64,000 nt of DNA from NCBI RefSeq assembly GCF_041248615.1, contig NZ_CP158426.1. One strand, given 5' to 3'. The position numbers were made by a program, and so were the translations under genes. Below, in pieces: positions 20,520-33,317 of the stretch (within the stretch, counting starts at the first letter, position 1; each line of letters opens with the position of its first letter). Below the pieces are notes generated by a model. That model ran no database searches and was not told the origin of the DNA. It saw only the letters and a program-made list of their open reading frames with translations. Source of the DNA: Escherichia coli. Lineage in GTDB: Bacteria > Pseudomonadota > Gammaproteobacteria > Enterobacterales > Enterobacteriaceae.

Positions 20520-20599
20520 AACCAAACGACTCGGGGTGCCCTTCTGCGTGAAGGCTGAGAAATACCCGTATCACCTGATCTGGATAATGCCAGCGTAGG
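20520..20599 (+). repeat. Left 80-bp direct repeat (attL-like); copy of the thiM TPP-riboswitch aptamer sequence
   Basis: aaccaaacgactcggggtgcccttctgcgtgaaggctgagaaatacccgtatcacctgatctggataatgccagcgtagg is identical base for base to 33185-33264. Confidence 0.9.
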
Positions 20600-20654
20600 T
20601 TGCCAACATTCTGATTAGTATTCATGTGGTTACATTTCTTTTTGTCCGTGTGTA

Positions 20655-22203: not shown

Positions 22204-23106
22204 GTGGATATGTTACTACCAATACGAGTTCATAAACGATTTCTAACTTTATTTAAGACTTTGCAAATTGACGATTGCCCACCGCAATCAACTTTAAATA
22301 TTCATGTACTTAATATCGAAAGCAATGAATTTATATACTGTAAATTAGTTGAAGAATTACGTGACATAATAATTACTTATGTACATTCGAATAGAAGGCT
22401 TGAGGAGTTTAAGGAAAGTTATCCTTCGTATAGCCCTAAACCTTTTTTCGAAGCAATACAAAAATTTCGCAATTATACGTCAAACGAAGGTGAGTTAGGT
22501 GAACTGCTTTTATACGCTTTTCTTGAAACAGGACTAAATGCTCCGAAATTACTTTCCAAAATGCAATTGAAAACAGATTCTAATGATTACATTAAGGGTT
22601 CTGATGGTGTACATCTGTTAGAATTAGATGATGGTTATCAATTAATATTTGGAGAATCAAAGCTCTATGCCGATCTTTTAGAAGGTGCTCGAGAAGCGTT
22701 TGATTCTATTTTAGATTTTAAAAGTAATGGAATGGCATTTGAAAGAGGGCTGATAGATACACACGTTATAAATGAAATGGTTTCAGAAGAAGGTTATGAG
22801 AAAATAAAATCAATTCTTCTTCCTTCTTCTGGCGATGATGGGCCAGATCTTGATTTATCCTTTGGTATATTTCTTGGTTTTGAATTGAAAATAGATAGCT
22901 CACAGTTATCATTGAAAAACAAAGAGTTTAGAGATTGGGTTAATGAGTCCGTGAAACAACATGCTACTCGCGTGGTCAGTACGATACGAAGGAAAATTAT
23001 TAATCATAAATTATATGGTCACGAATTCCACATATATATAGTTCCTTTTACCGATATTGATGTTACACGAAAAAAATTAATTCATGAAATGCTAACAATT
23101 AAGTGA
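22204..23106 (+). CDS. PD-(D/E)xK nuclease-like protein, HamA (DUF1837)-like candidate; start GTG 22204 or ATG 22210
   Basis: Motifs in the order expected for the restriction-endonuclease fold: acidic helix EGELGELLLYAFLE, then SDGVHLLELDDG, then LIFGESKLY (E-x-K). AT-rich; stop overlaps the start of the next gene. Confidence 0.55.
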   Translation: MDMLLPIRVHKRFLTLFKTLQIDDCPPQSTLNIHVLNIESNEFIYCKLVEELRDIIITYVHSNRRLEEFKESYPSYSPKPFFEAIQKFRNYTSNEGELGELLLYAFLETGLNAPKLLSKMQLKTDSNDYIKGSDGVHLLELDDGYQLIFGESKLYADLLEGAREAFDSILDFKSNGMAFERGLIDTHVINEMVSEEGYEKIKSILLPSSGDDGPDLDLSFGIFLGFELKIDSSQLSLKNKEFRDWVNESVKQHATRVVSTIRRKIINHKLYGHEFHIYIVPFTDIDVTRKKLIHEMLTIK

Positions 23107-25691
23107 ACACTATGAATGAATTAAATTCAAGTAAAAACATTCATTTGGCAGCTCGTCTTGCAGATGATGCTTTTGAAAGTGCTTATTTTAAAGAAATCAA
23201 TAAGTTTATAAGTGGTTTATACAATTACAGTTTATTTAACTGCGATTCAGATGTTAGTCTCTCCGAGAGTGATAACAATAAAATAGCACACGCTTTGCGT
23301 TTTGCAGATATATTTTCACATTCTTCAAAAGAAAATCATAGATCATGTGCATTTGAAATTATAAGTAGAATAGCCTTATTAAAAAAACATGATCCTTATT
23401 TTAAATTTATAGGTACTGCTGTTATTAATCGGCTTGGGGTTTATGCAGCAGAAAAACTCATATCAAAAGGGGTAAAATTACCCTTAGATAGAGAAGTTGA
23501 TTCTATTATTAAAAAATCAGTTCAGAAAACAGATGAAGATGGAGTATATTTCACTGATAAACAACATGAGTTATACAAACTTTTAAAAAGTAGCAAAACA
23601 ATTAGTTTTGCTGGTCCCACTTCGATGGGAAAGTCATTTGTTATTAATGCATACATTAAGGAAATAACTCTTAAAAAAGAGCTTAAAAATATAGCTTTAA
23701 TTGTTCCTACACGGGCTTTAATAAGCCAAAATGCACTTAAGTTAAAAATTGATATTGCATTGTATAAGAATGAAAGCCCTTATAAAGTTGTTACGACATC
23801 CTACATTATTAATGGTGATGAAAGTAAAAATAAAGGCTATATTTTTATTCTCACCCCAGAAAGGCTGGTTAGTCTCATAAGCACTATTCCTGGACTAATG
23901 ATTGATTATGTTTTTGTAGATGAAGCTCAAAAGTTAACAACAAAAAATGATTCGAGGAGTCTTGTTACTTATTCAGCTATAGAGCAAACAATTAGTAAAA
24001 ATCCTGAGGCAAGATTATTCTTCTCTTCACCTAATTTATCTAATCCTGAAATATTTAATATTTTGTTTGATAGAAAAGACGCTTCGGTATATAGAAATAC
24101 AGAAGGTGCAACTACTCAGAATATGTATTTTATTGATCTTTTAAATAGCAGCTTTAGCTATGTTAATACCGAGAAAAGGACGCTTGAAAAAATAGATGAG
24201 ATCTCTAATACTTACACGAATACAAATGATGTTATCTATAAATTAAATAATGGTAAAAGTAAAATAATTTATTGTGGGGGGATAGAAAGCACGCTTGAGA
24301 GAACACGTAGCTTTATCAATTATCTCAAAATTAATAAGAAAAAAAGAAAGCATTTAAATTTAGAAATATCTTCTGAGATAAGAAACTTTGTTCATGATAA
24401 CTATGAACTTGCAGAAGCCATCAACTATGGTGTTGCTTTCCACTTTGGAAACTTGCCTCAATCGATTCGAGATTTAATTGAGCATCATTTCAAAATAGGA
24501 AATATTGACTATCTATTCTGTACATCAACCCTACTTGAGGGAGTCAATTTACCTGCAAGATCCGTATTTATTCTTACGCATAAAAAAGGCCCCAGTCCAT
24601 TAGAGTCGGTTGATTTTTGGAATCTGGCTGGGAGAGCTGGGCGATTATCTATGGAATTGTCAGGGGATATTTTTTGTATTAGGGATGATAATAAGCTTTG
24701 GAATAAAAAAGCTGTTGATAATATCCTTCTGTCTGACAAAAATAACATTTCATTAAAGCCAAGCTTCTATATTGAAGACGAAAAAAGATTGAACGATTTA
24801 CACCATATAATTACGACTGGTAAAACAGGGAATATTAAAAATGCTGAGTTCCTTAGAACTTTAGGAGATATGATAAGAATAGACACTCTGAGGGATTCTA
24901 AAGAACTTCCTCTTATTAGTTATTTCCAAAGCAGTGGAAAATCAGAAATTTTGTTAAGTGCAGAAAAAAGCACTGAAAATATTACCATGCCAATGAATAT
25001 CCTTTTGGCAAATAGTCATATTGCGATTGATTCGCAGTATCATGCTTTTAAAAAAATAAAAAGCCTTACAGTTAAGGAACTGAAATTATCATGGCAGCCT
25101 ACATACGAAGAAATTAAAGAAAAATTGAATTTGATATTCGATATTTACCAAGTTGAAAAGTTTGCAACAGGTAGAGAACGTCTTTATTTAAATTCAATTC
25201 CATATTATGCAGTATTACTGTTTCAATGGATTCGTGGAAATAGTCTACAGGAAATTATCTCGGGGGCAATTGCTTATAGAAAGAACAAAAGTATATATAT
25301 TAAAAATACACCTGTTCTTTTTGACAGCGAAAACCCAGCTCATTTAACTGCATTAGTTAATGAAACTATAAAAGACATTGAGTTGCGTGTAGGTTACCAG
25401 TTACAAAATTATTTTTCACATTACTGTCAGCTTCTGAATTATGTGTTACAAGGAAATCCAGGGGCAAACTGGTCTCAGTTCATTGAGTTTGGCTCTAATG
25501 AGCCAATAGTATGGCACCTACAAATGATGGGCTTTTCAAGGGATAGTGCAGTTTTTCTCAAGAAGAATTTTTCAAAACATCTTAAACTTGATAATGAAAT
25601 GAATAAACTCATCATAATGGATAAGGAACTGATCAAGCGTTCTTTCAAAAAAGATGGACTACATTACTTAGAAATCCAATCGTTATTATAA
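23103..25691 (+). CDS. Superfamily-2 helicase (DEAQ box), HamB-like candidate
   Basis: Walker A/motif I FAGPTSMGKSFV, motif II VFVDEAQKL, motif VI-like NLAGRAGRL; about 170-aa N-terminal extension before the helicase core; GTGA start/stop overlap with the upstream gene. Confidence 0.6.
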   Translation: MNTMNELNSSKNIHLAARLADDAFESAYFKEINKFISGLYNYSLFNCDSDVSLSESDNNKIAHALRFADIFSHSSKENHRSCAFEIISRIALLKKHDPYFKFIGTAVINRLGVYAAEKLISKGVKLPLDREVDSIIKKSVQKTDEDGVYFTDKQHELYKLLKSSKTISFAGPTSMGKSFVINAYIKEITLKKELKNIALIVPTRALISQNALKLKIDIALYKNESPYKVVTTSYIINGDESKNKGYIFILTPERLVSLISTIPGLMIDYVFVDEAQKLTTKNDSRSLVTYSAIEQTISKNPEARLFFSSPNLSNPEIFNILFDRKDASVYRNTEGATTQNMYFIDLLNSSFSYVNTEKRTLEKIDEISNTYTNTNDVIYKLNNGKSKIIYCGGIESTLERTRSFINYLKINKKKRKHLNLEISSEIRNFVHDNYELAEAINYGVAFHFGNLPQSIRDLIEHHFKIGNIDYLFCTSTLLEGVNLPARSVFILTHKKGPSPLESVDFWNLAGRAGRLSMELSGDIFCIRDDNKLWNKKAVDNILLSDKNNISLKPSFYIEDEKRLNDLHHIITTGKTGNIKNAEFLRTLGDMIRIDTLRDSKELPLISYFQSSGKSEILLSAEKSTENITMPMNILLANSHIAIDSQYHAFKKIKSLTVKELKLSWQPTYEEIKEKLNLIFDIYQVEKFATGRERLYLNSIPYYAVLLFQWIRGNSLQEIISGAIAYRKNKSIYIKNTPVLFDSENPAHLTALVNETIKDIELRVGYQLQNYFSHYCQLLNYVLQGNPGANWSQFIEFGSNEPIVWHLQMMGFSRDSAVFLKKNFSKHLKLDNEMNKLIIMDKELIKRSFKKDGLHYLEIQSLL

Positions 25692-25999: not shown

Positions 26000-26575
26000 T
26001 CAGCGTTTGATGCCGCTAATACTGGCAAGCATTTCTTTCTTCACACGAAAAACTGTAGCCCTGCCGCAATCACATAACTTTGCTATCTCGTCTGGTGTAT
26101 TCTTCCCGGCCTGTAACATATCGATAATCTTGTTATGTAGCTCTTTGTTCTTTTGCTTGCCCTTGTACTTCTTAGCCTCTTTAGCAAGAGCAATCCCCTC
26201 ATTGCGACGAGATGCGATCATACCCCGCTCAAATTCTGCAGCGGCTCCCATCATGGTTAGGATAAGGCGTGATTGTGGGGAATTATCAAAACTCATAGAG
26301 TTTGCAAGGAATTGAACAGTGATTCCACGAGCCACGAGGTTATCAATCATTTCCAGCAAATCGCGGGTATTACGTGCAAGGCGATCAATCGAGTGAGTAA
26401 CGAGCGTGTCACCTTCGCGGAGGTGTGAAAGCAGGTTCAACAATTCAGGTCTTTCGCTGGTGGACTTACCTGATTCTTTCTCTGCCACAATTTTGTCACA
26501 AACAGGTTCCAGCACTGCCAACTGACGCTCAAGATTTTGATCCTTTGTTGAGACTCTCGCGTAACCAAAAATCAT
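26000..26575 (-). CDS. Serine recombinase (resolvase/invertase family)
   Basis: N-terminus MIFGYARVSTKDQNLERQ (catalytic Ser in YARVST context), C-terminal HTH-like tail; 191 aa. Confidence 0.85.
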   Translation of the reverse strand: MIFGYARVSTKDQNLERQLAVLEPVCDKIVAEKESGKSTSERPELLNLLSHLREGDTLVTHSIDRLARNTRDLLEMIDNLVARGITVQFLANSMSFDNSPQSRLILTMMGAAAEFERGMIASRRNEGIALAKEAKKYKGKQKNKELHNKIIDMLQAGKNTPDEIAKLCDCGRATVFRVKKEMLASISGIKR

Positions 26576-26600
26576 TTTCCTGCCCTCACTTACGTGAAAA

Positions 26601-26662
26601 GTATCATTTGAATTTACTTAATGATACAGTATCATTTAAATGCATTCAACATCTAAATGATA
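26601..26662. promoter_or_regulatory. Cluster of three dyad-symmetric elements upstream of the serine recombinase gene (res-like site)
   Basis: GTATCATT-11 nt-AATGATAC; TGATAC-A-GTATCA; ATCATTTAAATG...CATCTAAATGAT. Position immediately 5' of the resolvase start is typical of res sites. Confidence 0.45.
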
Positions 26663-27081
26663 CTAAACGAGACGAGAAAAGCGAGTATCGTTAGGGAGTA
26701 CCCAAAAGAGATTTTTGATCGTGCGTTTTTTAGTCAATGTAGGGTTAGTGAAAAGTTCAGTACCGAGATCTGAGTTCACGGCATTTTGTCGACGGGGTTG
26801 AACCTGATTAGGCGAACGAGATTTTAAATCAGGCGGAATAAAACAAGTTGTACTTTTATCTGAGTAAAAGATCCCTTTAACTTTTTAGTCAGAAATCGTG
26901 ATACTAGGGGTTTGGTTATTTTGTGTCCTTAAGGCCAGTACTTTTAGCGAGGACGAAAAAACGGCCTACATGAGAACGCTTACAGTAACTTAAGTATATT
27001 ATCCAAAAAGTCACTTAACTTAAATCAATTTGGATGCAAAATCGCCACACTTTGCAAGTGAACACATACCGGGCAACAAGC

Positions 27082-27109
27082 AAATAAAAAAGGCCACTTT
27101 CGCGACCTT
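27082..27109 (-). terminator. Rho-independent terminator after the 119-aa gene
   Basis: Minus-strand RNA: AAGGUCGC-GAAA-GUGGCCUU (GNRA tetraloop) followed by UUUUUAUUUG. Confidence 0.65.
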
Positions 27110-27125
27110 GTACCAGTACAAACAC

Positions 27126-27485
27126 TCATTCAGAACGATCAAGTACCATATATGCTGGCTGACACATGCTGCCCCGCTCCTGTAGCCAGTAGTAATCAAG
27201 ATCGGCAACACGCACGTCCAATCCAGAATCTACACGGTTGATCTGTAACCGTAGCCCTACAGTATCCTTGTACGATAAACCAGATTTAACATTGTATTTG
27301 TACTTAACACCGTTTTCCTGTTCAAACTGTTTAAGGAAAGGCGTCATTTGTTTCTGAATTTCTTTCAAACAAATAACCTCATTATCAATAGCAAAGGGGG
27401 GTTCTGTTTTTCCATCAGGTACAGCAGCCTGTAAATGAAAGGAAGTACTCAACAATAACAGCATTGCAACAGAAGTCTTTTTCAT
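27126..27485 (-). CDS. Small secreted/periplasmic protein of unknown function
   Basis: Sec-type signal peptide MKKTSVAMLLLLSTSFHLQA; 43 bp downstream of the membrane-protein gene, same strand. Confidence 0.6.
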   Translation of the reverse strand: MKKTSVAMLLLLSTSFHLQAAVPDGKTEPPFAIDNEVICLKEIQKQMTPFLKQFEQENGVKYKYNVKSGLSYKDTVGLRLQINRVDSGLDVRVADLDYYWLQERGSMCQPAYMVLDRSE

Positions 27486-27528
27486 TTTAATTCCTTATTA
27501 AAGAACAGTACATTATATTTCAATGGAC

Positions 27529-28569
27529 TTAATAACAATATTTTATATTTCCTTCGGGTTTTCTCATGCATTTAATTCCTTCAGGAATATAATCAGTTAC
27601 GGGAGCAGGTCTGGCATCAGGTCTTGAAAGACGATTGGATATAGAAGACAACAGACTGAAAACACACTCATTAAATGATTTTTGATATTTATTTTTTTCA
27701 TAAAAGTACTGCATGGTGATTTTATCTCTTTCGTATTGCAATTCTTTGCCAAGCTGAATCCTATCCATATCAATTCCATTTCTCATAGCATTAAATCTTT
27801 CGTTCAATAAATTAAATTGAGATTTATTCCATTCATTTAAAGGAAATAAAGAATTGTTAAGCCTTTGCCTACAATTAGATTGCTCGATAGCTGACATGTA
27901 TTCTTTCATACTAACGCCAATATCTAAGTATGTGAGTTGTCCAGCAGTTCTATCAACTGAGTTATTAGGGTAAGATTTAATTTCAGTAAGTATTGACTCT
28001 GTTAATACTGCATTTTCTTCTAAATCTTTGCTAATAGTTATTTGAGCTTGTTCTCTTTTATCCTTATCAAATATTGAAATGTATTTCTTTACTATATCCT
28101 GATTAGCTTTCTCGGCTGCTACTAACGCATCTTGAACCTTCTTTTCCGCCGCTTTAACTCGTTGTTCTTCTACAAATTTCGCGTAGTCATCAGTATTTGT
28201 AATGTGATTTTCACGAGCGATAGAAAACTCTTTACTATCTTTAAAACCAAGTTTTTGTGCTCTGGCTCCATCGCTTGAAGATCGGGCAGAACTTGCCACG
28301 AAAGCGAGCACAATGATCAGTACAGGAACCGTATAATTATTAACGAGTTTATAGGGTAAGAACTTCGCTTTAAGCGTACCATAACCCAAAACAGCCCAGC
28401 CTATCGCGGCAGTACTTGCCAGTAGCTGGCACAATCCAGCGACGGAAAGCATGATTACCGACCAGAAGCCTGTACCGACTGCGAAAAGATCACCAAATTT
28501 CTCCATTGACGCAAGGAATAAAAACACTCCCCAAATGCCATAAAATCCTATTTTCAAATATTTACTCAC
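27529..28569 (-). CDS. Inner-membrane protein (3-4 N-terminal TM helices) with coiled-coil-rich soluble C-terminal domain; function unknown
   Basis: Hydrophobic segments in the first ~100 aa; charged helical region (EEQRVKAAEKKVQDALVAAEKANQDIVKK); AT-rich codon usage. Confidence 0.6.
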   Translation of the reverse strand: MSKYLKIGFYGIWGVFLFLASMEKFGDLFAVGTGFWSVIMLSVAGLCQLLASTAAIGWAVLGYGTLKAKFLPYKLVNNYTVPVLIIVLAFVASSARSSSDGARAQKLGFKDSKEFSIARENHITNTDDYAKFVEEQRVKAAEKKVQDALVAAEKANQDIVKKYISIFDKDKREQAQITISKDLEENAVLTESILTEIKSYPNNSVDRTAGQLTYLDIGVSMKEYMSAIEQSNCRQRLNNSLFPLNEWNKSQFNLLNERFNAMRNGIDMDRIQLGKELQYERDKITMQYFYEKNKYQKSFNECVFSLLSSISNRLSRPDARPAPVTDYIPEGIKCMRKPEGNIKYCY

Positions 28570-28779
28570 CGCAATTATCCTTTAATAATTTTCCAAATCG
28601 ATGGTTCGTTCTATTTGTATTATCGACAATAATTCGTTTGCCTTTAGGTAGATCCCTTAAAAAGGAATCCCCCCAAAATTTATAGATTAGCAGTTGTACC
28701 ACTCTCACTGTTTTGTCACTCCCATTATCTTCTCTCAGGTCAAAAGTACGGACTTAAAGCCGTCCGTGTTCAGGTGCTC

Positions 28780-28900
28780 AAGAGTAGCACGCATATCAAT
28801 AAATGATCGATAAAAACGATCAATTAATGGCTTATTGATCGCTATAACCTATCAATGACTATTAATTCAATACAAATCAATAGGTAAAATCGATCAAGAG
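28780..28900. repeat. ATCAAT/GATC-rich iteron-like cluster in an ORF-poor region
   Basis: About six ATCAAT (or complement) motifs in both orientations and several GATC sites within ~120 bp; further GATC pair at 29096-29103. Confidence 0.4.
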
Positions 28901-29552
28901 GATTCGTCATCCATGAAAGGGGTTATGTATCTGATTTCAATACAGGGAGTATTAGCGATACCATCACGCAAACGCTCTTAAAGCGTAGCTACGGCGTTTT
29001 GTAGGGTTTTTGGTCATTCATGTGTGTCAGTAATGAACATCGCATTCAGGGGCTTCCTGTGCGTTTTGTCCGAAACACCATCATGAAGGGGGACAGATCG
29101 GATCGGGGTCGCTTCGCTCTGGTCAGTACTGGATAGTTCTTTTCCAGTAACTGAAACCGCAGATACCCCACTAAGTACACAAAGGAATTATTTGTAGAAT
29201 AAGTAATGAAATAACAGTCAGTTATGTACTTACTGACAGAACTAAAAACGCGATTAGGTTCGCTCTGTCAGTGACCGAAGGGAACGCAACAGTAGAATCT
29301 AATCCAGCGAACAGTACACGCAAGCGGGTGCTGTTTAATTGTTTTATCTATGTAAACAATGGGATAGCTATCAAGTACTCACTGCGTGAGCACTCTCACT
29401 AACTACCCGAAACAGTTCGCTTGCTTCGCCGCTCCTACTTTCAGGTAGTTAATTCGCTTTCGCTCGTTGTGATGTCCGAAATTTATTACCTATAGTATTA
29501 TAAGGTATTATTTTCCGGACATTTATGTATTTTTATGATGGTGTTCTGGACA

Positions 29553-31028
29553 TCATTTTTTGCTTTTTTGTACTTCCTTTTCGTATTTGTTCCACATAGC
29601 CTTTTGCTCTTCGGGACTGAGTGCTGTATTACCACTGGCAAGAAACACCTTGAACGCTTCTAACTCAAGCCCTGGGTTGCGGCTTTTCCAGCGGCGAAAA
29701 CGCTTAGCGTGATTATCATCAAGAGTGAAACGCTTTTGCTTATTCTTTGAACCTTGCGGCCTGCCTCTCGACCTCTGCTCATCATCAATACCGATATCTA
29801 TATACTCAATATTATCTGTAAGAGATCTGGCTTGCCATTCATCAAAAACATAAACAGTCTGTGTTTCAGTACTGTCAAAATCCCTTGAAATTCCTCGTAG
29901 TACGAACTGGTGTAAACTTTCGTACTCCCTCGCAACATGTATCGCCTCGCCGTCAATCTCAAAGAACAATTCGCACTGTTTAGCCTCTGTTTCAGAGGGA
30001 CGCATACAAGCGAGCCAGACGCACGTGAGCAAGTGTTGGTACTGGTTAAACCCTCTGGCATCCGGGCTTATCTCTGTGCCGTTTTTGAGGCTCTGAGAAT
30101 CGCTTTTGTTCTTCGTCCAGTAGAAATCCTGTCCCTCAAGTTTTTTATCAATAAATGAGTATATTTTTTGTACTTTATCAGGGTTATTAGTCTTCCATGT
30201 CTTCGATAGTTTTTGATTTTTTGAGAAGTAATAAACCTTTAATCTGTCTTTGAGAGCTGTTTTTCGTGTCAGTAATCCTCCAAGTTCAGTACTTTCAAAG
30301 AGTTCTTTATTGCCTTTATAGATCAATGAATTTTCGAAATTAGCTCCGAGAAAGGTGATTGATACGTCTTTGTACTTACTGAGATCTTTCCATGCGGTAA
30401 TATTAAGCTGTTCCTTTTTCGCATCGGTAAAGTACTCATTATTCATGATGAACATATCATTTTCGTTAATTGCTGGTAGCTGGTTCAAAATATTCTTCAG
30501 TACTTCCCCTTGTATTTCTGGTTTTCTTTCTGCCGCAATATACATATTTTTATCATCTAATGTCAGTACATTGTGTATTAATGAATTAAGAATTGTATTT
30601 TTTATATTAGTATCACCCTCATTAATATTCTGAAAAGAGTGAAAATTAGTAACGTCGTCAATATAAATATTACAGTCAGATAACAATTCAGGAGGAATTT
30701 TGAAAAACGTTTTATCTGTTATGAGTAATGTTTTATTACTTCCAGATGAAAGAAAGTTAATAACTGAATTAATAACACTTTCATCTTTTGGTACTGTATC
30801 TGTAATTATATACTCGCAATTATTGATTTGCTTTGCTGTCTGCTTAATAAGTTCTTGAGTGTTCTGTACTAAAATATATTTTTCAGTACTGTTATTGATT
30901 ATATTGCATATAGCAGTAGTTTTACCTGAACCACAAGGGGCGGAGACATACTTAAATTTATTATAAATAGGTGTGGGATTAATCATTTGTACACGCTCCA
31001 TATTGATTAATGTAGAAAGGTCAGCCAT
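29553..31028 (-). CDS. P-loop NTPase with basic C-terminal tail containing an AT-hook-like RGRP motif; function unknown
   Basis: N-terminal Walker A SAPCGSGKTT, Walker B-like NIYIDDV; C-terminus RSRGRPQGSKNKQKRF. Confidence 0.6.
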   Translation of the reverse strand: MADLSTLINMERVQMINPTPIYNKFKYVSAPCGSGKTTAICNIINNSTEKYILVQNTQELIKQTAKQINNCEYIITDTVPKDESVINSVINFLSSGSNKTLLITDKTFFKIPPELLSDCNIYIDDVTNFHSFQNINEGDTNIKNTILNSLIHNVLTLDDKNMYIAAERKPEIQGEVLKNILNQLPAINENDMFIMNNEYFTDAKKEQLNITAWKDLSKYKDVSITFLGANFENSLIYKGNKELFESTELGGLLTRKTALKDRLKVYYFSKNQKLSKTWKTNNPDKVQKIYSFIDKKLEGQDFYWTKNKSDSQSLKNGTEISPDARGFNQYQHLLTCVWLACMRPSETEAKQCELFFEIDGEAIHVAREYESLHQFVLRGISRDFDSTETQTVYVFDEWQARSLTDNIEYIDIGIDDEQRSRGRPQGSKNKQKRFTLDDNHAKRFRRWKSRNPGLELEAFKVFLASGNTALSPEEQKAMWNKYEKEVQKSKK

Positions 31029-31370
31029 TCCAGTGTCTGGCCTTTCGTTGTTTTAGTTATTAGTCTTTTTGAGTTGCGACAACTGCAAGAGAATGTTTAT
31101 AAACAAGTGAAATAAGCAGTTTTACCGCCTCAAAAGCTACAGTCAGTTTCGTAATTATTTTCGAAAGCATCGTAAATTTCACTTCGCTATCTTCTATGCA
31201 AAAATTAGCAGCCTGAGGTATTTAATGATTGAGATGTGGCCTGTTGATAAGAGGGTTTGTATTGCTTGTTCTGCTCTTTGTTAATTTGTGACTTATTCCT
31301 TTCACAATGATCGGCTATGTTTGATAACTCTGTTAGGAAATCACCTATGGCTACCATATTGGATTTGCCC

Positions 31371-32276
31371 CTATATTTCCAGACACCTGTTATCACTTAA
31401 CCCATTACTGGCCTGCTGCCGCAGATATTCCCGTGGCGAGCGATAACCCAGTGCACTATGCGGATGCCATTCGTTATAATGCTCGAACGCCTCTGCAAGG
31501 TTCTTTGCTGCCGTTAACCCGTCTGGTTTAGGCATGATACTGATGTAGTCACGCTTTATCGTTTTCACGAAGCTCTCTGCTATGCCGTTACTCTCCGGAC
31601 TCCGCACCGCCGTGTTCTTCGGTTCAAGCCCCAATATCCGGGCAAACTGCCGTGTTTCATTAGCCCGGTAGCATGAACCATTATCCGTCAGCCACTCTAC
31701 TGGAGACGCCGGAAGCTCGTTGCCGAAGCGGCGTTCCACCGCTCCCAGCATGACGTCCTGTACTGTTTCACTGTCGAAGCCGCCCGTAGTGACTGCCCAG
31801 TGCAGTGCCTCACGGTCACAGCAGTCCAGCGCGAACGTGACTCGCAGTTTTTCTCCGTTATCACAGCGGAACTCGAACCCGTCAGAGCACCATCGTTGAT
31901 TGCTTTCTTTCACGGCCACTTTGCCAGTATGTGCCCGTTTCGATGGCGGTACAGCGGTTTTTCGCTCAAGCAACAGCGCATTCTGGCGCATGATCCGGTA
32001 AACACGTTTGGCATTGATCGCAGGCGTACCATCAAGTTCGGCCTGTCTGCGAAGCAGCGCCCATACCCGACGATAACCATACGTGGGCAGCTCTCCGATA
32101 ACATGGTGTATACGGAGAAGCACATCCGTATCATCTGAGTGACGGCTGCGGCGACCATCTTTCCAGTCATCGGTTCGTCTGAGAATTACGTGCAACTGCG
32201 CACGCGACACCCGGAGACAACGGCTGACTAAGCTTACTCCCCATCCCCGGGCAATAAGGGCGCGTGCGCTATCCAC
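31371..32276 (-). CDS. insD: IS2 transposase OrfB (InsD), DDE domain
   Basis: 301-aa ORF recognised as IS2 InsD; overlaps insC in the -1 frame as expected for an orfAB frameshift fusion. Confidence 0.9.
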
Positions 32277-32599
32277 TTTTTTGCACGCCCGTATTCAACG
32301 GCTTCTTTAAGGAGTTCATTTTCCATCGTTTTTTTGCCGAGCAGGCGCTGGAGTTCTTTAATCTGCTTCATGGCAGCAGCAAGTTCAGAGGCAGGAACGA
32401 CCTGCTCTCCTGCGGCCACAGCAGTAAGACTTCCCTCCTGGTATTGCTTGCGCCAGAGAAATAACTGGCTGGCTGCCACACCGTGTTGCCGGGCAACAAG
32501 GGAGACCTTCATTCCCGGTTCAAAACTCTGCTGAACAATAGCGATCTTTTCCTGTGTAGTACGCCGTCTGCGTTTCTCCGGTCCTAAGACATCAATCAT
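32234..32599 (-). CDS. insC: IS2 OrfA (InsC), HTH protein
   Basis: [56 protein letters not shown]...; start taken at MIDVL (ORF track begins 45 nt upstream). Confidence 0.9.
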
Positions 32600-33184
32600 C
32601 TGCTCTCCAATGACTAGTCTAAAAACTAGTATTAAGACTATCACTTATTTAAGTGATATTGGTTGTCTGGAGATTCATGGGGCCAGTCTACATATAATCA
32701 TGTTCATCTTCTAATTCTTTAAATTTTAATAGAGAAATCTCTTCATAATATTCTTTCATTTTCATATAAATCACCTTTTATTTTTTTGTTGTTAACACAG
32801 GTTTTTTTCTGCACTACACATTATAGCACATAGAATTAATTCGTTTCATTTTCTGTCAATGAAATAGAGTAAAGATAAATGCTTTTATAAAGCACTTATC
32901 ACATCCGTTGCCTTGCTATATATAAAAAGTTCTCCAAACTATACTGGTGTATATTTTCCCCATCAGATACAGTTGTTTTTAAACATTACAATGTTGGATT
33001 CTTGGTTCCAAATAAATCGAGCAACTATTAGTGTTTCAAAATGAAGTTGGGAGCTATTCCTTAATTCGTATGAGGTACAAAATGGGGTACTCGGTGGGGT
33101 ACAGCGTGTATAAGTGACGTCACCACGGGTAAACTTGCATCGGCGAGCAACTTAACCTAAGCTGACAAAAATTAAGAGAAATGT

Positions 33185-33317
33185 AACCAAACGACTCGGG
33201 GTGCCCTTCTGCGTGAAGGCTGAGAAATACCCGTATCACCTGATCTGGATAATGCCAGCGTAGGGAAGTCACGGACCACCAGGTCATTGCTTCTTCACGT
33301 TATGGCAGGAGCAAACT
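33185..33317 (+). promoter_or_regulatory. thiM TPP riboswitch (thi-box aptamer plus expression platform); its first 80 bp are also the right direct repeat (attR-like) of the island
   Basis: Sequence ...cgactcggggtgcccttctgcgtgaaggctgagaaatacccgtatcacctgatctggataatgccagcgtagggaagtcacggaccaccaggtcattgcttcttcacgttatggcaggagcaaactATG matches the recalled E. coli thiM riboswitch. Confidence 0.9.

Follow-up and report, generated by a model that had tools for sequence, protein, structure and literature searches.

IS2 interrupts a small open reading frame at the attR-proximal end of a thiM-integrated anti-phage island in Escherichia coli NRZ14408

A complete IS2 element lies within an island of ~11.3 kb that has integrated into the thiM TPP riboswitch of E. 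coli NRZ14408, ~490 bp from attR, the island boundary. What did this element interrupt, did it truly duplicate its target, and does its presence matter for the helicase gene that lies beyond it? We addressed these questions in a 64-kb stretch of DNA containing the island (hereafter, the window) and in related islands of other genomes. The explanation that we favor overall, with a probability of roughly 85%, is that, in the lineage of NRZ14408, IS2 landed in a small ORF near the attR end of an integrated anti-phage island. The coordinates of the features discussed below are collected in Table 1.

The anti-phage character of the island rests on a Hachiman module, i.e., adjacent genes for HamA (DUF1837; 22204–23106) and HamB (an SF2 helicase; 23103–25691). 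HamA was matched by Pfam (1.2e-62), and both proteins were matched over their full length by PADLOC (HamA1, 2.4e-120; HamB1, 8.3e-296). This module is on the opposite strand from the backbone helicase gene and is untouched by IS2, and the integrase gene and the att sites are likewise physically intact. The remainder of the island is a backbone consisting of a resolvase gene, two hypothetical genes, a conserved ORF-less stretch of ~1 kb and a gene for a 477-aa SF2 helicase, and islands with the same backbone were also found at yggS, ppdD and ffs. An Rfam search of the island returned only the two copies of the TPP riboswitch. In its small size, presence in a minority of strains, direct repeats, integrase and second recombinase, and in carrying a known defense system (here Hachiman) without phage or conjugation genes, the island resembles the integrase/recombinase-only defense islands of E. 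coli, whose mobilization is unclear (Hochhauser et al. 2023, PMC10121019). Neither a thiM-riboswitch att site nor this backbone was found described in the literature that we searched.

The reference length of IS2 in ISfinder is exactly 1331 bp, and a 5-bp target duplication is the norm for this element. The element in the window has this length, both terminal repeats, orfA and orfB with a frameshift site, and a 5-bp duplication. Specifically, orfA scored 272.9 bits (cut-off 229) against NCBIfam NF006928 over residues 16–136 of the longest ORF, orfB scored 700.8 bits (cut-off 597) against NF006918, and the transposase scored 208.3 bits (cut-off 160) against transpos_IS3. The two frames overlap, encode a DDE transposase and are fused via a −1 frameshift at an A6G slippery site (AAAAAAG; position 408), and orfA, orfB and this site are all intact, in agreement with RefSeq, which annotates a joined CDS (31371–32599) as an IS3-family transposase with "programmed frameshift" and no pseudogene flag. 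This copy is full-length and appears capable of transposition. Its transposase genes are co-directional with the interrupted small ORF and with the helicase gene (minus strand); the IRR adjoins the 3′ fragment of the small ORF and the IRL adjoins the 5′ fragment. Within the window, the IRR sequence is found a single time, against 0 occurrences expected by chance. The end coordinates given in the earlier note stand, but its description of the ends as exact does not, because they differ at one position each (IRR, 40/41; IRL, 41/42) from the published sequences printed in PMC3299598. The length of IS2 is given as 1.3 kb in PMC3219604.

Table 1. Positions of the IS2 insertion and of the surrounding island features in the 64-kb window
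Feature	Position	Strand	Remarks
attL, left copy of 80-bp repeat	20520..20599	+	followed by island tyrosine integrase gene
Backbone SF2 helicase-like ATPase, 477 aa	29553..30986	-	RefSeq CDS
Small ORF, 3′ fragment	31205..31357	-	codons 25-74 plus stop
Candidate IS2-flank fusion promoter, TGGAAA-17-TATGGT	31353..31381	-	facing helicase gene; putative
Target-site duplication CATAT, left copy	31355..31359		single copy in KE55 empty site
Complete IS2	31360..32690	-	1331 bp; NCBIfam matches, RefSeq annotation
IS2 IRR, 41 bp	31360..31400	-	40/41 identity to published IRR
IS2 orfB (TnpB/InsD), 301 aa	31371..32276	-	NCBIfam NF006918
IS2 orfA (TnpA/InsC), 121 aa	32234..32599	-	NCBIfam NF006928
IS2 IRL, 42 bp	32649..32690	-	41/42 identity to published IRL
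Small ORF, 5′ fragment	32688..32765	-	codons 1-25, then TAG from first IRL bases
Target-site duplication CATAT, right copy	32691..32695		single copy in KE55 empty site
Small-ORF Shine-Dalgarno, AAAGGTGA	32771..32778	-	5 nt before ATG
Sigma-70-type promoter, TG-extended -10 (ATGAAA-18-TATAAT, TGCTATAAT)	32820..32849	-	scan 10/12 with TG
attR, right copy of 80-bp perfect direct repeat in thiM TPP riboswitch	33185..33264	+	

The CATAT sequences that had been noticed on both flanks of IS2 were found again at the same positions, and they are a genuine duplication: the empty site of KE55 proves this, as do ~12 IS-free genomes. In KE55, a single CATAT is present between identical flanks, within an annotated 225-bp CDS (WP_001590328.1); the flanks in the ~12 genomes are 99.5–100% identical, with a gap of exactly the size of the IS. 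Could the structure instead have arisen during assembly, through the collapse or misplacement of an IS2 copy? Assemblers can be misled by multi-copy repeats, and NRZ14408 has 14 places matching a 4-kb query that includes IS2, compared with a median of 4 per genome. However, both junctions are base-precise, the flanks rejoin exactly to the allele of other strains, and misassembly would not create a perfect 5-bp duplication, which makes an artefact next to impossible. The insertion was found in NRZ14408 alone among 5,426 complete E. coli genomes (one genome with at least 80% coverage), and its flanks are 100.0% identical to those of KE55, both of which argue that it is recent.

Excision of IS2 together with one CATAT restores a 74-codon ORF on the minus strand, with its ATG at 32765, its stop at 31205–31207 and the Shine-Dalgarno sequence AAAGGTGA, just as the earlier note had described. 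The same ORF is annotated and intact in the IS-free copies of the island (KE55 and others), which bears out the statement that IS2 splits a small ORF of the island. The two observations that would have spoken against this statement, namely, other copies with no ORF at this position or a CATAT that is not duplicated relative to the uninterrupted allele, were both decided in its favor. More generally, the sequence-level description of the insertion was reproduced throughout, save for the exactness of the ends and the length of the downstream gene (see below). The insertion falls at codon 25, inside the conserved 56-residue core of the small ORF. The 5′ fragment translates as MKMKEYYEEISLLKFKELEDEHDYM followed by the stop, and the Met25 codon is re-created by the duplication; in addition, a chimeric ORF of 63 codons runs from a GTG in the IRR (31396) in frame into the 3′ fragment.

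Is the interrupted ORF a gene? Homologues were found in Kosakonia and in metagenomic contigs, with the synteny thiM, small ORF and a helicase of ~480–510 aa. Part of the comparison is what would be expected if the ORF were non-coding and IS2 had entered a conserved leader or 5′ UTR (possibly with a regulatory uORF), an attP arm or regulatory DNA. Across the ~800 bp from attR to the helicase gene, 22% of the columns vary in each of the upstream flank, the small ORF and the spacer, i.e., conservation of the ORF does not exceed that of its non-coding surroundings. Its variable sites show no third-position excess (12/10/15 by codon position vs 3/2/15 at the 5′ end of the helicase gene), the place of its stop varies (most homologues have 56 codons, whereas E. 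coli has 74), only 7 protein clusters among 5.8 billion correspond to it, and its product has no family or fold match. On the other hand, the ATG is conserved, as is the Shine-Dalgarno sequence in all homologous loci (AAGGTGA or AAGGCGA); no indels occur across 168 nt of the ORF in five distinct sequences, unlike in the flanks; and the frame is kept open while the other two contain 5–8 stops (with random substitution, a frame would stay open with a probability of ~0.18 to ~0.46 per lineage). Moreover, dN/dS is 0.29–0.66 and below 1 in every pair, the AF2 model is confident over residues 1–56, and PGAP calls the ORF a CDS. Weighing both sides, we hold with moderate confidence that the small ORF is a translated gene, and a non-coding element is a possibility to which we give appreciable weight, if not the greater share; in that case, what was damaged would be a cis-acting element rather than a protein.

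The suggestion that the small ORF encodes a regulator fared less well. The predicted product is acidic (pI 4.85–5.05, about 4.9) and is modeled as two long helices (residues 2–28 and 30–56) without a helix-turn-helix (HTH). No family rose above noise for it in Pfam, PHROG, NCBIfam or PADLOC, and Foldseek found no structural match for the model in the PDB (best E-value 8.8); a PADLOC match to PtuA (E-value 0.005, 14 bits) was taken as chance. Like genes for excisionases and AlpA-type regulators, the small ORF has its own promoter, precedes backbone genes and is located close to an att site. In contrast to those proteins, which have an HTH or winged-helix fold and are usually basic, its 74-aa product is acidic, is predicted to form two long helices, matches no HTH or winged-helix structure and belongs to no family. 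An identity as regulator, excisionase or antitoxin was rejected, given that Pfam, PADLOC, PHROGs, NCBIfam and the PDB gave nothing above noise.

The small ORF is also not a constant companion of the helicase gene. By tblastn, no homologue was found in the yggS, ppdD and ffs islands (of E. coli, Tenebrionibacter, Enterobacter and Raoultella), where the helicase gene is preceded by the integrase gene or, in the ffs type, by an unrelated basic ORF of 54 aa. Co-occurrence is limited to thiM-integrated islands, and the two genes do not form an obligate two-gene module. A common family of small proteins upstream of the helicase in all islands was considered and rejected, the ffs-type 54-aa ORF being basic and unrelated.

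The downstream gene had been described as encoding 491 aa, counted from the longest ORF (ATG at 31028). We assign it 477 aa with a start at 30986, as in RefSeq; the ATG at 31028 is an ATT in one homologous locus, and residues 1–18 of the 491-aa model are of low confidence. The AF2 model of the helicase (pLDDT 90.7) contains the two RecA-like domains, Walker A, motif II and motif VI of an SF2 core, and the residues of motifs I, II and VI are invariant. Its top fold matches are XPD and DinG, with an identity of 8–14% and a TM-score of ~0.44 to these Rad3-like helicases. In contrast to XPD/DinG, it lacks the four conserved cysteines of a 4Fe-4S domain inserted in RecA1 (no cysteine is invariant or nearly so among 52 aligned homologues), has a basic helical C-terminal tail and is confined to this island backbone. 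RefSeq names some homologues type III restriction enzyme Res subunits. However, the protein has neither a partner Mod methyltransferase nor a full ResIII helicase plus endonuclease domain: no methyltransferase gene is adjacent to the helicase gene in any context examined, and the match to Pfam ResIII (23.9 bits, cut-off 22.5) is restricted to a segment of ~50 residues that surrounds Walker A. A scan of genome contigs for relatives of the helicase returned three loci only.

How might the insertion affect this gene? The strongest and best-conserved promoter of the region is a predicted one located ~48 nt before the small-ORF ATG; its extended −10 (TGnTATAAT or TGnTATATT) is conserved across genera. 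With IS2 in place, 1.3 kb of IS separates this promoter from what is left of the small ORF and from the helicase gene. The likely effect is that the small product is lost and the helicase gene is uncoupled from the conserved extended −10 promoter. Alternatively, the insertion may have left the rest of the island essentially unaffected, with the helicase and the other backbone genes using promoters of their own downstream of the IS, so that only the small ORF would be lost. The spacer of 218 nt between the small ORF and the helicase gene is conserved and contains a promoter-like site (31182 to 31154), so the insertion may hardly affect the helicase gene if that gene is transcribed from a promoter of its own. 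Moreover, homology to islands at other att sites begins only ~80 nt upstream of the helicase ATG, which means that the gene works behind quite different upstream sequences. However, in those other islands an integrase gene of the same orientation precedes it by ~100 bp, an arrangement that speaks for co-transcription rather than for an autonomous promoter, and the site in the spacer is weak (9/12, with AATAAT as −10) compared with the extended −10 promoter upstream of the small ORF. We consider an insertion without effect on the rest of the island somewhat unlikely.

The earlier note had also raised the idea that an outward IS2 promoter could affect neighboring genes, and this idea can be made specific. 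Reading out of the IRR toward the helicase gene, a −35 hexamer in the IRR (TGGAAA, 31381–31376) and a −10 hexamer in the flank (TATGGT, 31358–31353) together form a candidate fusion promoter, TGGAAA-17-TATGGT. It scores only 8/12 and was not among the hits of the consensus promoter scan, yet its register and score equal those of TGGAAA-17-TAGACT at the IS2 minicircle junction, which is the sole hexamer pair of at least 8/12 found when the published junction sequence, where Pjunc lies, was scanned. IS2 insertions at the gal operon, ampC and acrEF are polar on adjacent genes or provide fusion promoters for them. The known insertions of this kind share with the present one the same element, its end sequences, the outward −35 in the IRR and a flank hexamer at 17 bp that can serve as a −10, as at the minicircle junction. 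They differ from it in having hit characterized operons, whereas here the target is a tiny hypothetical ORF in a defense island and the fusion promoter is a sequence-level candidate only. Pjunc requires a 17-bp spacer (PMC3299598), and an outward −35 in the IRR, as well as IS2 fusion promoters at ampC, acrEF and neoR, has been reported (PMC9330008).

A further question is whether the insertion was selected because silencing or uncoupling the helicase operon is advantageous, e.g., by immobilizing or detoxifying the island. Selection would explain two independent IS insertions between the promoter and the helicase start: in addition to IS2 in NRZ14408, strain PSJ-23 carries an IS10-type element at the helicase Shine-Dalgarno sequence (9-bp duplication, CGCTCCATA), so that two insertions fall within ~460 bp among ~14 genomes with a thiM-type island. 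Against this, IS elements are scattered across the backbone of related islands: some sit in hypothetical genes, others close to the integrase or within the ORF-less stretch. Specifically, MB06101 carries IS2 in the ORF-less stretch, and IS1, ISSen4 and IS1A were found in the backbone of two further strains, which points to a general accumulation of IS elements in AT-rich acquired DNA. In addition, 7 of the 8 Hachiman-type islands are uninterrupted, and the numbers are too small to show a statistical excess. Selection is thus very unlikely in our estimate, and the proposal of selection for an IS upstream of the helicase was rejected as unproven. The target DNA has ~33% GC, compared with 52–55% in core genes, and a preference of IS2 for curved DNA has been reported (PMC3299598). 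We therefore view the insertion as one among many by IS elements into AT-rich DNA of horizontal origin, rather than as a regulatory change that was targeted.

A bolder reading, which we regard as distinctly improbable, is that IS2 decapitated the leftward unit of a group of undescribed site-specific integrative islands whose backbone is replication or mobilization machinery, and that the IS thereby immobilizes the island and fixes its defense cargo in the chromosome. The backbone would then comprise a promoter, a small acidic protein (in the thiM type), an XPD-like helicase, a structured RNA or ori-like element of ~490 nt running from 29552 to 29055, two envelope proteins and a resolvase. In the ORF-less gap, we found no tandem repeats of the kind expected for an origin with iterons; the search yielded a single local inverted repeat and some short motifs resembling TTGATCG. 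An alignment of 9 sequences of the gap gave 11 compensatory pairs, and one of 19 sequences gave 5, which is not above slid controls (0–6); an alignment of 22 sequences included rearranged copies. The RNA-like motif had no match in viral contigs. A phage or plasmid origin of the backbone was rejected, with no plasmid match and a single, distant match to a jumbo phage.

Returning to the reading that we favor, IS2 transposes by the copy-out/paste-in route of the IS3 family via a minicircle. Its insertion into the small ORF duplicated the 5-bp CATAT and cut the 74-codon frame behind codon 25, so that only a stub of 25 residues, closed by the TAG in the IRL, is left of the 5′ part. The small product would presumably be lost, and transcription of the helicase gene from the native promoter would be reduced or blocked. 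Weak constitutive transcription, arising by read-through from the IS or from the Pjunc-like TGGAAA-17-TATGGT at the junction of IRR and flank, might replace it.

The insertion is a textbook kind of IS2 event, seen in a single clinical lineage of E. coli, and is of little weight in itself. Its main value is as a pointer to the head of a conserved, uncharacterized backbone that is common to many small defense islands in E. coli and other Enterobacterales. NRZ14408 and IS-free strains such as KE55, C325 and GF130 form a natural isogenic-like pair at this locus, which can be used to ask if the small ORF, the promoter or the helicase is needed for excision, replication or defense.

Comparison with other genomes revealed that the window is identical to NZ_LT599825.1, the chromosome of E. 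coli NRZ14408, and bore out the earlier note's claim of an IS2 insertion with a CATAT duplication. The ends of the element match the published ones (IRR, the right terminal inverted repeat, at 40/41 positions; IRL, the left, at 41/42), the TnpA and TnpB ORFs both exceed the curated NCBIfam cut-offs for IS2, and an A6G frameshift window is found, with RefSeq annotating the transposase as intact with a programmed frameshift. In strain KE55 the allele is uninterrupted: CATAT occurs once, the flanks are identical and a 225-bp CDS (WP_001590328.1) is annotated. Approximately 12 genomes match the flanks at 99.5–100% with a gap corresponding exactly to the IS, while among 5,426 complete genomes only NRZ14408 has IS2 at this site. 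Taken together, the empty site in KE55, the IS-free genomes and the sole carrier indicate that the target-site duplication is real and that the insertion is lineage specific and recent. A 4-kb query containing the IS found 14 matching places in NRZ14408 (median per genome: 4), suggesting that this genome may be rich in IS2, which would fit recent activity of the element. Both the element and this type of mutation are known. Where IRL meets the flank, the duplicated CATAT and its flank form a perfect TATAAT that faces outward to attR/thiM, with a poor −35 (GAGATT) at a distance of 17 bp; its significance is doubtful.

The insertion lies in a 12.7-kb island (11.3 kb without the IS), ~490 bp from its right end; the GC content of the island is 29–43% vs 52–55% in the flanking core genes. 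The attachment site is an 80-bp block in the TPP aptamer of thiM, and both copies exceed the Rfam threshold; we found no description of such a riboswitch attachment site in the literature searched. The left hybrid riboswitch has the chromosomal thiM promoter in front of it and the integrase gene immediately downstream, and it lacks its native expression platform; it is conceivable that integrase expression is thiamine responsive. The DNA upstream of thiM is now island derived, with a promoter candidate (TTGCAT-17-TAAGCT).

Features of the island and of the IS2 insertion, listed by position in the window
Feature	Position	Strand	Remarks
Left 80-bp direct repeat (attL)	20520-20599		Perfect; inside thiM TPP riboswitch; Rfam match 20520-20617, 58.0 bits
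Tyrosine integrase gene			Left end of island
Type I Hachiman			HamA + HamB; full-length PADLOC and Pfam matches
Small serine recombinase (resolvase)			On the opposite strand
Two hypothetical genes			119 and 346 aa
ORF-less stretch	28570-29552		~985 bp
AT-rich 3′ part	28800-28900		Local inverted repeat 28804-28824 / 28834-28854
RNA-like element	~29552->29055	−	First ~500 nt 3′ of helicase stop
Helicase gene	29553-30986	−	477-aa P-loop protein, SF2 XPD/DinG-like
Hairpin	31018-31052		GAAAGGCCAG...CTGACCTTTC; strongly conserved
Small ORF, rejoined	ATG 32765, stop 31205-31207	−	74 codons; SD AAAGGTGA; right end of island
CATAT duplication	31355-31359 and 32691-32695		One copy per IS2 flank
IS2	31360-32690		1331 bp
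IRL-junction TATAAT	Within 32670-32700	+	
Small-ORF promoter	32849->32820	−	TG-extended −10; conserved; ~48 nt upstream
7-bp inverted repeat	Within 32835-32900	−	TTTCATT...AATGAAA
Terminator-like hairpin	32900->32874	−	
Right 80-bp direct repeat (attR)	33185-33264		Perfect; inside thiM TPP riboswitch; Rfam match 33185-33283, 71.2 bits

Deleting IS2 and one CATAT in silico restores the minus-strand small ORF, as the earlier note had described; the ORF is indeed the target of the insertion, since it is intact and annotated in KE55. Other copies of the island do carry it, and the CATAT is a true duplication. Homologues are rare (7 clusters in 5.8 billion proteins), and all of them, from Kosakonia cowanii and metagenomic contigs, sit between thiM and a homologue of the helicase of ~480–510 aa. 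The conserved core comprises residues 1–56, the E. coli ORF being 18 codons longer because its stop is mutated, and IS2 breaks this core after codon 25. Several features argue for coding: the ATG and SD are conserved, as is the TG-extended −10 promoter ~48 nt upstream, no indels occur across 168 nt in five distinct sequences, the frame is the sole open one (chance of remaining open, ~0.18–0.46 per lineage), dN/dS is 0.29–0.66, an AF2 model gives two reasonably confident helices, and PGAP calls a CDS. Against this, variable sites are spread over the three codon positions (12/10/15, compared with 3/2/15 for the helicase gene), and conservation of the ORF does not exceed that of the adjacent non-coding DNA on both sides, with 22% variable columns throughout. 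We estimate a probability of roughly 0.6 that the ORF is translated to give a functional protein. The 7-bp inverted repeat, which overlaps the −35 of its promoter and is conserved across genera, may be an operator; the terminator-like hairpin just upstream of it is likewise conserved across genera.

The further suggestion that the ORF encodes a small regulator of the NTPase gene found no support: the product is acidic, profile searches assigned it to no family, neither an HTH nor a fold match was found, and the ORF is missing from islands at other att sites. Those islands have in its place either an integrase gene of the same orientation or a basic, unrelated 54-aa ORF. Judging from these comparisons, the small ORF is not part of the conserved backbone and travels with the thiM-specific island end rather than with the helicase. 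A P-loop NTPase gene does follow, as claimed, although the conserved start at 30986, in agreement with RefSeq, gives 477 aa; the upstream ATG at 31028 is ATT in one homologous locus, and residues 1–18 of a 491-aa model are of low confidence. The sequence observation was fully confirmed, the helicase length being the one minor correction. The hairpin just upstream of the true start overlaps the spurious ATG and, on the plus strand, is followed by a T-rich run, resembling a terminator; homology to islands at other att sites sets in a little upstream of the hairpin (~31068). The helicase family is modest (382 representatives at E ≤ 1e-3 among 1.84 billion), with none in 72,556 plasmids and almost none in sequenced phages; the protein matches an unannotated PHROG.

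Regarding consequences, the 5′ fragment of the small ORF now encodes 25 residues before a TAG contributed by IRL. The 3′ fragment keeps a re-created Met25, and a chimeric ORF of 63 codons that begins in IRR shares its frame. The small-ORF promoter now runs into IRL, co-directional with the transposase genes, and its distance to the helicase gene has grown by 1.3 kb. In the other islands, an integrase gene of the same orientation precedes the helicase gene by ~100 bp; this suggests that the helicase gene ordinarily relies on transcription from upstream, in which case IS2 probably lowers its native expression. The gene may instead be autonomous and unaffected by IS2, as the 218-nt spacer between small ORF and helicase gene contains a weak promoter-like site. 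An IRR-flank fusion promoter directed outward (TGGAAA-17-TATGGT) is a candidate replacement for the native one, since it equals in register and consensus score the TGGAAA-17-TAGACT of the published minicircle junction, the only pair of hexamers scoring ≥8/12 in a scan of that sequence. The junction promoter, Pjunc, is described as strong and as strictly requiring a 17-bp spacer (PMC3299598), and IS2 fusion promoters are known at ampC, acrEF and neoR (PMC9330008). Effects on expression are plausible on sequence grounds; the insertion leaves Hachiman, the integrase and the two att sites of NRZ14408 intact.

Related islands contain further insertions. In PSJ-23 (L016, 4587–6144), an independent IS10-type element (ISVsa5), flanked by a 9-bp duplication (CGCTCCATA), has inserted precisely on the helicase SD (window equivalent 30994–31002), its transposase gene co-directional with the helicase gene, so that two different IS elements lie ≤~460 bp apart among ~14 genomes with the thiM-type island. 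MB06101 (L039, 8573–9903) has a 95%-identical IS2 variant in the ORF-less stretch, inside the RNA-like element (window equivalent ~29135–29140); loci L040/L041 add IS1 and ISSen4 in one isolate and, in another strain, IS1A within the hypothetical genes. The simplest reading is that IS elements accumulate generally in acquired, AT-rich DNA.

The ORF-less stretch is better conserved than the adjacent genes and nearly identical at four att sites. Conservation of the RNA-like element exceeds that of the helicase gene itself; the element is bracketed by a 15–21-bp long-range inverted repeat, folds well below shuffled controls and has no Rfam match. An alignment of 9 sequences gave good covariation support, at 11 compensatory pairs vs 0–3 in slid controls. 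With 19 sequences, metagenomic copies included, this support became equivocal, as the 5 pairs were not above slid controls (0–6); the covariation score (0.074 vs 0.015–0.027) and the sense/antisense energy difference (−92 vs −69 kcal/mol) still favor structure on the helicase-sense strand. We regard the element as no more than a candidate large structured RNA. Many TTGATCG/ATTGAT motifs lie in the AT-rich 3′ part, which could serve as an origin, a res site or some other array bound by proteins; homology to locus L013 stops short of it. A Raoultella locus (L015, 6793–6855) has a second, partial copy (81% identity) of a 63-nt segment of the RNA-like element upstream of the helicase gene.

The segment from resolvase to helicase (26000–30986; loci L004, L005, L006, L013–L015 and L039–L041), in the order resolvase, two hypothetical genes, ORF-less stretch and XPD-like helicase, recurs at 85–99% identity in many E. 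coli islands elsewhere, at yggS, ppdD and ffs, and is also present in other genera. Integrases and cargo both differ in these islands: the former are large serine recombinases or tyrosine integrases, the latter a NACHT protein, a STAND ATPase, an AAA ATPase with a nuclease, a metallophosphoesterase or a gene annotated as "anti-phage protein." We found no description of this backbone in the literature searched. The islands fit the class of integrase/recombinase-only defense islands, the mobilization of which is unclear, described by Hochhauser et al. (PMC10121019), and their shared backbone is a more interesting object than the IS2 event itself.
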